Virus record (IMG/VR): IMGVR_UViG_2737471993_000002 | Length of the DNA stretch: 64,000 nt | Source of the DNA: a virus | Taxonomy: Duplodnaviria; Heunggongvirae; Uroviricota; Caudoviricetes | Direction: 5' to 3' (one strand) | Shown here: positions 37,062 to 37,914 of the stretch, in pieces | How positions within the stretch are numbered: position 1 is the stretch's first letter | Layout of the letters: each line of letters opens with the position of its first letter | The notes under the pieces: model-generated | Told to the model about the DNA's origin: nothing | Databases searched by the model: none | Seen by the model: only the letters and a program-made list of their open reading frames with translations | Position numbers and translations under genes: made by a program

Positions 37062-37451
37062 AAACACAATAATAAGTATTTACTTACTTATCTTTTATGT
37101 ATAAGATGACTTTGTTTTCGTTGAGACGCGACTGTTTGAACTTAAATACAAGTGCAAACGAAGAAGTCTATCTGGCAGTAGCCTAATAAGCCAAACACCA
37201 GCGAGGTCAGTTTCCAGCCTCGTTACCGAAATGGGACACACTGAGCGAGTGTGATTGCAGAACGCAGGAGGGAACATGAGTGTTCCCTCCGATGAAGTAA
37301 CAGAATGGGCGGTCGGTATATTTTCAACTCCATATGACTCCCGGATTCTTAGCCTCTGACCGCCCATCCTGTTACGTCATTTTGTTCAATTATGTCGTTT
37401 ATACTGGGTTAAAAAGCGGCGACGTAGCCCGGCTGGTATGGTTAGCCAGCA

Positions 37452-37573
37452 CACAACGTTGAGGCCATTACATTTTTATCAATTCTAAGGTTCTATTCAC
37501 AGAGATACCGGCGAGCGTTGATATGTAACATGTTGGGCAAACATTCAATCGGAGTAGTGGCCTCAACGTTGTG
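37452..37573. repeat. long hairpin: 16-bp perfect inverted repeat with ~90-nt spacer
   Basis: CACAACGTTGAGGCCA at 37452-37467 and its exact reverse complement at 37558-37573; the spacer contains further small palindromes. Confidence 0.6.
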
Positions 37574-37839
37574 AAGACAGGATTGTTGTGTAGGTTTAAC
37601 CACTGTTGCCATTGGTGCCTGTTTTCACAACAAATGATTCCATACATCACATTGTATAAATTACAAAGTAGGTGCTGTCCTCAGAAACATCATCTACTTA
37701 AAGATTTTGCCTTCTACTATTGAGCGAAGTCGAAAGCGTCTGGCACTAACGAAAAGTGCAAGTAGCGGTGCGTTTCCTGGCAGAAACTAAACCGTCGCGA
37801 TTGGCACTGTTGAGTAATAAATACTGGCAGTGCCGAATT

Positions 37840-37914
37840 GATGGTGTAGCTCAGCGGTAGAGCAGTTGGCTGTTAACCAACTGGTCGGTGGTTCGAATCC
37901 ACCCACCATCGCCA
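37840..37914 (+). tRNA. tRNA-Asn (anticodon GTT)
   Basis: Acceptor stem GATGGTG/CACCATC, anticodon loop CTGTTAA, T-arm GGTTCGAATCC, encoded CCA. Confidence 0.85.

Follow-up and report, generated by a model that had tools for sequence, protein, structure and literature searches.

Transfer-messenger RNA (tmRNA, the product of ssrA) has so far been treated as a self-contained molecule. Prophages of enterohemorrhagic Escherichia coli (EHEC) encode the anti-small RNAs AgvB and AsxR, RNA sponges that pair with host RNA to neutralize it, and the tRNA cluster of phage T4 includes stable RNAs of unknown function, species 1 and 2 (rnaC/rnaD), for which no tag frame is known to us. In the tmRNA survey of Hudson et al., mycobacteriophages and Bacillus phage G are the only phages listed with ssrA, and phage DS6A has an element that consists of the tRNA-like domain alone (PMC4131195). 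In cell-free translation, a DNA oligonucleotide complementary to tmRNA suppresses product release from stalled ribosomes (PMC3384345). Here, a gap of ~750 nt upstream of tRNA genes was analyzed in the window, i.e., the whole stretch of 64,000 nt of the IMG/VR virus record IMGVR_UViG_2737471993_000002 (Caudoviricetes). The gap begins with a module for a candidate RNA, the tag RNA, that combines a tmRNA-like tag frame with a 5' domain complementary to host tmRNA.

The open-access full-text literature covered contained nothing on the tag peptides, phage tmRNA-like RNAs, or natural anti-tmRNA RNAs, and neither a natural tmRNA-pairing RNA nor a template-only tmRNA relative was found in it. The tag RNA thus appears to be undescribed there.

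The stretch 37062-37840 (779 bases) was 100% identical to E. coli plasmid CP099286 and shared 98 to 99% identity with the Escherichia phages CMS-2020a and Cyrano. Over the first two thirds of the 779 bases, identity was ~78 to 80% to Salmonella phage SSU5, to Yersinia pestis pMT1, and to phage-plasmids of Enterobacter, Citrobacter, and Klebsiella. By these identities, the window is an SSU5-like E. coli phage-plasmid.

Tag reading frame and pseudoknots of the module

The following elements were assigned to the module and its borders:

37077..37105, plus strand, putative promoter-like element (TATTTA/TTTACT ... TATAAG), conserved in SSU5-like relatives
~37107-37266, plus strand, tag-RNA module, the distinct first module, in the 5' ~160 nt of the gap
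37114..37123, plus strand, antisense box 1, GUUUUCGUUG, complementary to E. coli tmRNA nt 95-104 (CGACGAAAAC, tag codons 2-5)
37128..37137, plus strand, antisense box 2, GCGACUGUUU, complementary to tmRNA nt 82-91 (AAAUAGUCGC)
37138..37153, plus strand, A-rich linker preceding the resume codon; in the alignments, positions -4 and -3 are A and position -1 is U
37154..37189, plus strand, tag frame, GCA AAC GAA GAA GTC TAT CTG GCA GTA GCC TAA TAA, ten codons and two stops
37202..37236, plus strand, pseudoknot A, stem 1 of 37202-37206 with 37218-37222, loop UUCCA 37212-37216 with UGGGA 37232-37236
37237..37253, plus strand, hairpin B (CACACU-GAGCG-AGUGUG), counterpart of pseudoknot B of other clades
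37267..37290, plus strand, boundary hairpin C, homologous to the scaffold stem GGUAAGAGCA...UGCUCUUUCC, which holds variable inserts in other phages

The tag frame of the window encodes ANEEVYLAVA, and its counterparts read ANEDTYLAVA in SSU5, ANDNQYLAVA in pJN2-26, ANEEMYLAVA in HK620 and Carvaje, and ANDNVFLAVA in Mijalis. The phage tags share the gammaproteobacterial SsrA pattern, the E. coli SsrA tag being ANDENYALAA as read from the ssrA sequence. A pattern scan of viral contigs yielded at least 120 stretches; with the loci obtained earlier, the tag pattern was present at a minimum of 132 places, where the 13 variants, AN(D/E)xx(Y/F)LAVA, were all in frame, with no stop and no indel. Differences fell on synonymous third positions (GTC/GTG, TAT/TAC, ACG/ACA, GAG/GAA, and GCA/GCC/GCT), and the replacements were conservative (D/E at codon 3 and Y/F at codon 6). 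When the tag end was left free in a looser pattern, 3 real matches appeared amid chance ones, the real ones all ending in LAVA.

The frame looks translated, though not through ordinary initiation, since no conserved start codon, Shine-Dalgarno sequence, or upstream open frame was present across the aligned loci and, in clade L (lambdoid), a TAG stands in frame 8 codons 5' of the tag. That the region encodes an ordinary small protein by normal initiation, either the 29-codon open reading frame (ORF) 37097..37186 or a shorter peptide, is scarcely credible. An ATG-initiated frame does exist in the window, but its upstream part is not conserved, clade L has the in-frame TAG and lacks a start codon, no Shine-Dalgarno sequence is present, and the peptide in the +1 frame does not change conservatively. 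The resume codon GCA at 37154, its frame-setting context, and a start-less tag with an apolar, degron-like C terminus are features of tmRNA, as are pseudoknots 3' of the tag, likewise present.

Both stems of pseudoknot A varied between the loci with pairing retained. Stem 1 occurred as CGAGG/CCUCG, CAAGG/CCUUG, UGAGG/CCUCA, and CAGGG/CCCUG, and the stem between the loop and the downstream strand as CCGA/UCGG, CCAG/CUGG, and CCAA/UUGG, or, in the SSU5 clade, UUCCA/UGGGA, UUCCA/UGGAA, and CUCCA/UGGAG. In a gap-free alignment of 30 sequences, 99.6% of the cells were paired, compared to 26 to 49% in slid controls, and the covariation score was reached in 0 of 500 shuffles. A second pseudoknot (B) was found in most clades and was supported in clade L; the window has the hairpin at 37237-37253 instead, with a compensatory CAGACU/AGUCUG in loci L021, L050, and L093. 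By its anatomy, with an A-rich leader, GCA, 10-codon LAVA tag, stops, pseudoknot, and hairpin, the module can be taken as the mRNA-like half of a tmRNA.

Complementarity of the 5' domain to host tmRNA

The two antisense boxes pair with E. coli tmRNA in a collinear and antiparallel manner, forming 20 bp, including two G-U pairs, with a 4 x 3 internal loop between the blocks. The target of box 2 (tmRNA nt 82-91) includes U85, the frame-setting A86, and G90 and C91, the first two bases of the resume codon. The duplex of the 39-nt 5' domain at tmRNA nt 81-105 reached -26.3 kcal/mol and was the best site in the entire tmRNA, compared to a mean of -11.4 ± 2.8 kcal/mol for shuffles of the domain, none of which (0/500) attained the observed value. 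A run of at least 10 bp within tmRNA nt 86-112 occurred in 2 of 1,000 shuffles. These run-length and short-domain analyses were used instead of RNAduplex with the full-length module and tmRNA, which was uninformative, as it ignores intramolecular structure and the shuffles scored equally. In the gap parts 3' of the tag module, complementarity to tmRNA was limited to one 10-bp run, the chance expectation.

The pairing was conserved in all clades. All 53 distinct 5' domains in an alignment of 89 sequences, with every clade represented, took the same register at -23 to -35 kcal/mol, and among the 71 distinct 5' domains from all loci obtained, tmRNA A86-C91 was paired in 67 to 71 and C98-C104 in 68 to 71. 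Two motifs invariant in the family, GUUUUCG and GCGAC, are the exact complements of nucleotides flanking the resume codon, the GUUUUCG core pairing with tmRNA nt 98-104. The flanks of these cores differ between clades: the SSU5 clade adds pairing to tmRNA nt 82-85, and the lambdoid and 47-kb clade, which keeps both pairing cores despite its different flank, adds UUUGCGGUUUUUUA against tmRNA nt 68-81 (the 3' strand of pseudoknot 1 [PK1]). Pairing is kept through wobble where GCGAC is changed to GCGGC (at U88) or to GCGAU (at G87); GCGUC of Mooglevirus does not keep it. The target within tmRNA had an unpaired probability of 0.64, compared to 0.43 overall. With extended, conserved complementarity to an accessible target, the RNA would belong among trans-acting antisense RNAs.

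Duplexes of the 5' domain with the corresponding region of its own RNA averaged -12.9 kcal/mol versus -24.8 kcal/mol with host tmRNA, and the host duplex was the stronger in 71 of 73 variants; the complementarity therefore appears to be aimed at the host molecule. Pairing of the 5' box with the RNA's own tag was considered and rejected, as it varies without compensation and is weaker than that with host tmRNA.

Relationship to tmRNA and 5' end of the RNA

In 206 nt of the window, Rfam models gave local, sub-threshold matches in the tag region, to tmRNA_permuted with 15.9 bits and to beta_tmRNA with 14.4 bits (E = 0.0084), short of the gathering thresholds of 47 and 84. In other phages, tmRNA_permuted, alpha_tmRNA, and tmRNA matched with 20 to 30 bits, none at gathering score, and the local tmRNA-family matches were confined to the tag region. 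ARAGORN read "tmRNA (permuted)" with the tag ANDNVFLAVA and two stops in Mooglevirus loci, its "resume consensus" matching in L006 the stretch homologous to the linker. In the window, it called no tmRNA at default or ps85, and at ps80 only a permuted candidate with an unrelated tag ~3.5 kb 5' of the module. A T-arm motif scan of the window found the four tRNAs only, and the remaining 44 kb of the near-identical Cyrano genome contained neither a tRNA or tmRNA call at normal thresholds nor a T-arm with an acceptor-like end behind it. Neither a tRNA-like domain (acceptor stem with G3:U70, T-arm, and 3' CCA) nor the separate acceptor piece of a two-piece tmRNA was found in the window or the Cyrano remainder.

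Two candidates for the lacking parts were discarded. The neighboring tRNA-Asn was rejected as the tRNA-like domain, since lambdoid copies of the module have no tRNA nearby, and homology of the 5' domain to the 5' end of tmRNA was dropped because the local alignment to E. coli ssrA was not significant outside the tag. In the E. coli genomes, no similarity of the module to host ssrA was found at the blastn level.

The 5' end was approached through the promoters. Canonical sigma-70 promoters, TTGACA-17-TATAGT and TTGACA-17-TAGATT, end 7 to 11 nt 5' of the GTTTTCG box in Mooglevirus L006 and in L110 of the 47-kb group. The promoter-like element of the SSU5 clade lies at the same place before the box and is conserved in the alignment; the element at 37077..37105 was not called by a promoter consensus scan of the window. 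These three independent placements set the 5' end just before the first box, and the tag RNA probably starts a few nucleotides 5' of the GTTTTCG box. A transcript that starts this close to the box would not have space for a 5' acceptor strand.

This bears on the possibility of a split (two-piece or permuted) phage tmRNA, with the module as its coding piece, an acceptor piece that lies elsewhere or is too divergent for recognition, and the complementarity as a by-product. We consider this improbable. It would fit the permuted tmRNA with this tag that ARAGORN proposes in Mooglevirus L006 and L100, the tmRNA_permuted matches at 20 to 30 bits, and the T-arm-bearing modules that adjoin the tag module in L005, L047, L107, and L124. 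It is opposed, beside the promoters, by the scans for T-arms and tRNA-like domains, in which the window and the Cyrano remainder showed the four tRNAs only. T-arm modules other than tRNAs were near the tag in just 15 of at least 132 loci, in a scan that missed some visible by eye (L107 and L124), and had no fixed position relative to the tag module. In L006, the proposed permuted pieces are ~640 nt apart with three tRNAs between them, and the doubtful 5' half overlaps tRNA-Lys. In the tRNA-like element upstream, the acceptor stem is closed by a loop, with no G3:U70, and CCA is absent in L131.

That element was recorded in Felixounaviruses at ~910-1010 of L006 (Mijalis) and in L131 and L096, as a circularly permuted tRNA-like element between tRNA-Asp and tRNA-Lys. 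It runs from a T-arm and the 3' acceptor strand through a short loop (GCCAAACA or UUACGG) to the 5' acceptor strand and the D-arm, and its acceptor stem covaries (ACCCUUC/GAAGGGU versus ACACG/CGUGU). An extra tRNA-like element, GGGAGTTGCTGGGCGGCCAGTTAGGAGCTGGCGTGAGGTTCGATTCCTCAGCTCCCC, without an ARAGORN call, lies just before tRNA-Asn at ~1920-2000 of L011 (Salmonella pSTM_Phi).

Occurrence of the module in phages and E. coli

In a sensitive search of phage genomes, only query bases 41-195 (~37102-37256) matched unrelated phages, with ~77% identity and always in noncoding places. In Felixounaviruses and Moogleviruses, the module is flanked by tRNA genes; in the lambdoid phage HK620, it separates the qut site from the late terminator; in Klebsiella phage Carvaje, it lies 5' of tRNA-Ser; and in the 47-kb phage group, it is likewise in noncoding sequence. 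It was present in 392 of 5,426 complete E. coli genomes (~7%), at 261 plasmid and 142 chromosomal places, one of the latter being in a lambdoid prophage with Q on one side and the holin gene on the other. No annotation for the module was found at any E. coli place among the matches listed.

The module could be a decaying, captured tmRNA gene or a functionless spacer or processing leader of the tRNA operon, as phage tRNA islands carry spacers and pseudo-tRNAs, the tail 37575-37839 is poorly conserved, and a MITE-like insertion breaks the module in one Klebsiella oxytoca plasmid. This is very unlikely given that at least four unrelated phage lineages and the 392 E. coli genomes have retained the module, with purifying selection on the tag and covariation of the pseudoknot, and that it has no blastn-level likeness to host ssrA, local alignment not being significant outside the tag.

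The insertion in the K. oxytoca plasmid (NZ_CP064109; L009, ~1400-1670) is ~260 bp long and splits the tag module between hairpins B and C. Imperfect inverted repeats at its ends, GGGGTCGGTTTGG / CCAAACTCACCCC, together with a duplicated TTGCAG, give it the look of a miniature inverted-repeat transposable element (MITE).

Candidate mechanism of tag replacement

In the reading favored here, to which a probability of roughly 0.45 is assigned, the phage RNA would bind host tmRNA by base pairing, cover the tag template there, and present a tag of its own, a tag swap. The broader proposal that enterobacterial phages reprogram host trans-translation by an RNA guide, a tag cassette without a tRNA domain whose YLAVA ending replaces that of the host tag, is put forward tentatively and remains doubtful. 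The parts with direct support are the module anatomy, the conservation of the reading frame, the covariation of the pseudoknot, and the complementarity with its conservation.

During phage gene expression, the RNA, presumably made and trimmed to ~160 nt, would anneal to host tmRNA in the cell, and the host tag template ANDENYALAA would be masked. The polarity of the strands would set the phage resume codon beside the PK1-proximal end of the duplex: the antisense domain is 5' of the phage template, so its 3' end leaves the duplex at tmRNA nt 81/82 (nt 68 in the other clade), by PK1. From the duplex end to the phage resume codon there are 16 nt in the window; in clade L there are 22 nt, compared to 21 nt between U68 and G90 of tmRNA. 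The phage template would thus occupy the position of the host template. Ribosomes that had accepted host Ala-tmRNA-SmpB would then resume on the phage frame, the phage tag would be translated, and the rescued proteins would end in YLAVA, not ALAA.

Several points weigh against this reading. The target and the U-rich antisense sequence are of low complexity, for which mononucleotide shuffles are a lenient control. To our knowledge, the tmRNA target sequence is the same in all known hosts, and covariation between phage and host is therefore not informative. We know of no experiment that shows ribosome loading of a tag template tethered in trans. In RNA sequencing of Y. pestis, the small RNAs on pMT1 (sR082 and sR083) lie elsewhere than the module. 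A duplex beside the mRNA channel might simply block trans-translation. The tRNA-like modules near the tag in a minority of phages (15 of at least 132 loci, such as L005 and L107) and the permuted tmRNA that ARAGORN reads in Mooglevirus are a further point, and the ancestral or actual mode may be one in cis or in two pieces.

The main rival, with the split tmRNA next, is pure inhibition, which we regard as unlikely. The RNA would act as an antisense inhibitor that blocks tagging, so that rescue passes to ArfA/ArfB, and the tag frame and pseudoknots would be untranslated elements of mimicry or stability. The conserved complementarity to tmRNA, the lack of a tRNA-like domain in the window and the Cyrano remainder, and the laboratory precedent of anti-tmRNA oligonucleotides speak for it (PMC3384345). 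Since such oligonucleotides suppress release, pairing of the phage RNA should at least block use of the host tag. Inhibition leaves unexplained the selection on the peptide, as seen from coding-type substitutions in the tag with no frameshift or stop in at least 132 instances; the frame-setting A at -4 is also kept, and neither feature would be needed by an inhibitor. A tag offered in place of the masked host tag is the reading we retain.

Scaffold hairpins and the remainder of the gap

The preliminary description proposed a noncoding, hairpin-rich region of ~750 nt as a candidate structured RNA, and this was borne out. The gap folds at -265.9 kcal/mol, compared to -206.6 ± 10.3 kcal/mol for shuffles (z = -5.75; 779 nt), and covariation across relatives, an analysis it had called for, supports several helices. 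The minus-strand ORF 37095..37367 was rightly judged spurious: its longest stop-free stretch ranges from 32 to 94 amino acids across relatives, it is not conserved, and neither it nor three of four upstream small ORFs had a Pfam match. The suggested Rfam scan recovered the tRNAs and no family at gathering level in the gap; at E ≤ 10, the 3.5 kb of 36000-39500 gave tRNAs only. The gap is several modules in series, a putative multimodule noncoding transcript region, not a single RNA.

All three hairpins described earlier are present. The first, GGAGGGAACA-TGAG-TGTTCCCTCC, lies exactly at 37267-37290 and is the 3' boundary hairpin of the tag module. The second, with arms ATGGGCGGTC at 37305-37314 and GACCGCCCAT at 37358-37367, is the inner part of a longer irregular hairpin at 37291-37380, and the third pairs GGCACTG (37803-37809) with CAGTGCC (37828-37834) directly before tRNA-Asn (37840-37914). 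The elements 3' of the module are as follows:

37291..37380, plus strand, long irregular hairpin D, ~24 bp, containing hairpin 2, with covariation
37390-37399 with 37418-37427, plus strand, conserved helix, mostly invariant and thus of little covariation information
~37431-37450, plus strand, hairpin E, mostly invariant and likewise of little covariation information
37452-37470 with 37555-37573, plus strand, long-range 19-bp stem F, surrounding a variable insert of ~84 nt
37634..37648, plus strand, 15-mer ATGATTCCATACATC, invariant in all relatives, 4 copies in the window
37803..37834, plus strand, hairpin 3 before tRNA-Asn, replaced by other sequence in SSU5-type relatives and not a conserved part

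RNAalifold on 18 diverse relatives gave 12 pairs for hairpin C, most with compensatory changes, and 24 pairs for hairpin D, several of them compensatory; hairpin D is a possible RNase III or processing site. With 13 relatives, compensatory GC/AU changes were seen at 3 of the 19 pairs of stem F, and the 37390-37427 helix and hairpin E were recovered as well. The 15-mer ATGATTCCATACATC occurs at 36622-36636 (plus), 37634-37648 (plus), 40413-40427 (minus), and 46444-46458 (minus), i.e., 4 copies versus 0.03 expected; one copy begins a 50-codon ORF and the three others head no conserved ORF. Possibly, this 15-mer is a regulatory or promoter motif specific to the phage. The parts of the gap 3' of the module may act as processing sites, as a promoter of the tRNA genes, or as additional small RNAs.

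The module of lambdoid late leaders is set between conserved GGU-AAGAGCA...UGCUCUU-U-CC(A/G) hairpins, whose stems covary while the inserts vary freely, and hairpin 1 of the window is the same scaffold stem closed by a tetraloop. The scaffold hairpins probably mark RNA boundaries. Their 7-bp stem followed by NCC(A/G) resembles what we take to be an RNase P minihelix substrate. Interchangeable RNA cassettes in series were observed in lambdoid late leaders and 47-kb phages (L004, L005, L020, L098, L107, L110, L124, and others), each within a GGU-AAGAGCA...UGCUCUU-U-CC(A/G) stem or GUUGUGGUG...CACCACAAC. The same insert stands at different positions across phages, and some inserts contain T-arm-like (tRNA-like) hairpins.

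The gap is flanked by a run of small ORFs 3' of the DNA ligase gene on one side and by four tRNA genes on the other (ARAGORN: Asn 37840-37914, with Tyr, Thr, and Ser starting at 37920, 38011, and 38311). In SSU5, pJN2-26, Cyrano, pMT1, and many plasmids, the gap is again ~750 nt long and retains much of its sequence, and no annotation was found on it in these four or in the plasmid relatives; the tail 37575-37839 is poorly conserved among relatives. With all 779 nt as the query, matches came from 773 plasmid records and 317 phage records, all but a few of the organism names being from Enterobacterales. In the remainder of Cyrano (L255, 64000-108379), a methionyl-tRNA synthetase and a T4-like polynucleotide kinase-phosphatase are annotated. 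Together with the ligase beside the gap, they suggest a wider investment of the phage-plasmid in translation and RNA-repair functions.

A second scaffolded noncoding module lies between tRNA-Thr and tRNA-Ser (38087-38310), with AUAAGAUCA...UGAUCUUACC and then GUUGUGGUGG...CCACCACAA. Judged by eye, it is like modules that follow the tag RNA on its 3' side in phages HK620 and Carvaje and in lambdoid prophages, and it is not in Cyrano, where the Thr and Ser tRNA genes are 8 nt apart. Directly after tRNA-Ser, at 38401-38478, a long perfect inverted repeat, CACAGCGTTGAGCGGT...ACCGCTCAACGCTGTG, is similar in sequence to the stem of 37452-37470 with 37555-37573 (CACAACGTTGAGGCC...).

Significance and comparison with known systems

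If the broader proposal is true, tmRNA would have in the tag RNA its first trans-acting partner from nature, template swapping on tmRNA would be without precedent, and the fate of every protein rescued from stalled ribosomes during infection would change. Functional pairing would mean that phages of E. coli, Salmonella, Klebsiella, Shigella, Citrobacter, and Yersinia, among them widespread phage-plasmids and prophages in EHEC-sized genomes, determine if and how proteins from stalled ribosomes are tagged for degradation. This would bear on the response of phages to RNase- and tRNA-targeting defenses, on their dependence on tmRNA (the long-known lambda-immP22 and Mu phenotypes), and on possible designs of trans-translation inhibitors. 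For annotators, it offers a new, easily recognized RNA family, blank in every record examined.

With tmRNA (SsrA; RF00023, RF01849, RF01850, and RF04321), the phage RNA shares the A-rich leader with A at -4, the GCA resume codon, a gammaproteobacterial tag of ~10 codons (AND.NY...A) with an apolar end, the stops, and H-type pseudoknots after the tag. Unlike tmRNA, it has no acceptor stem, G3:U70, T-arm, CCA, or PK1, its tag ends in LAVA versus ALAA, its 5' domain is antisense to host tmRNA, and it scores 14 to 16 bits versus Rfam thresholds of 47 to 84.

The anti-ssrA oligonucleotide of Hanes and Plueckthun (1997) is reportedly complementary to the same tmRNA stretch (the resume codon and first tag codons). 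Anti-tmRNA oligonucleotides used in ribosome display and cell-free systems are synthetic, contiguous DNA with no template, whereas the phage RNA brings a template of its own. AgvB and AsxR are likewise prophage-encoded RNAs directed at host RNA; the phage RNA differs in having tmRNA, not an Hfq-dependent small RNA, as its target and in carrying a replacement domain. T4 species 1 and 2 resemble it as small structured RNAs located together, and presumably processed together, with phage tRNAs.

The mycobacteriophage Bxz1 group, Bacillus phage G, and DS6A are phages that likewise carry RNA parts of trans-translation, and the tRNA-like-domain-only element of DS6A is an example of a retained half-molecule, with possible action as an inhibitor (PMC4131195). 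The tmRNAs of the Bxz1 group and phage G are complete and that of DS6A is the tRNA-like half, whereas the RNA of enterobacterial phages would be the opposite half joined to an antisense domain.

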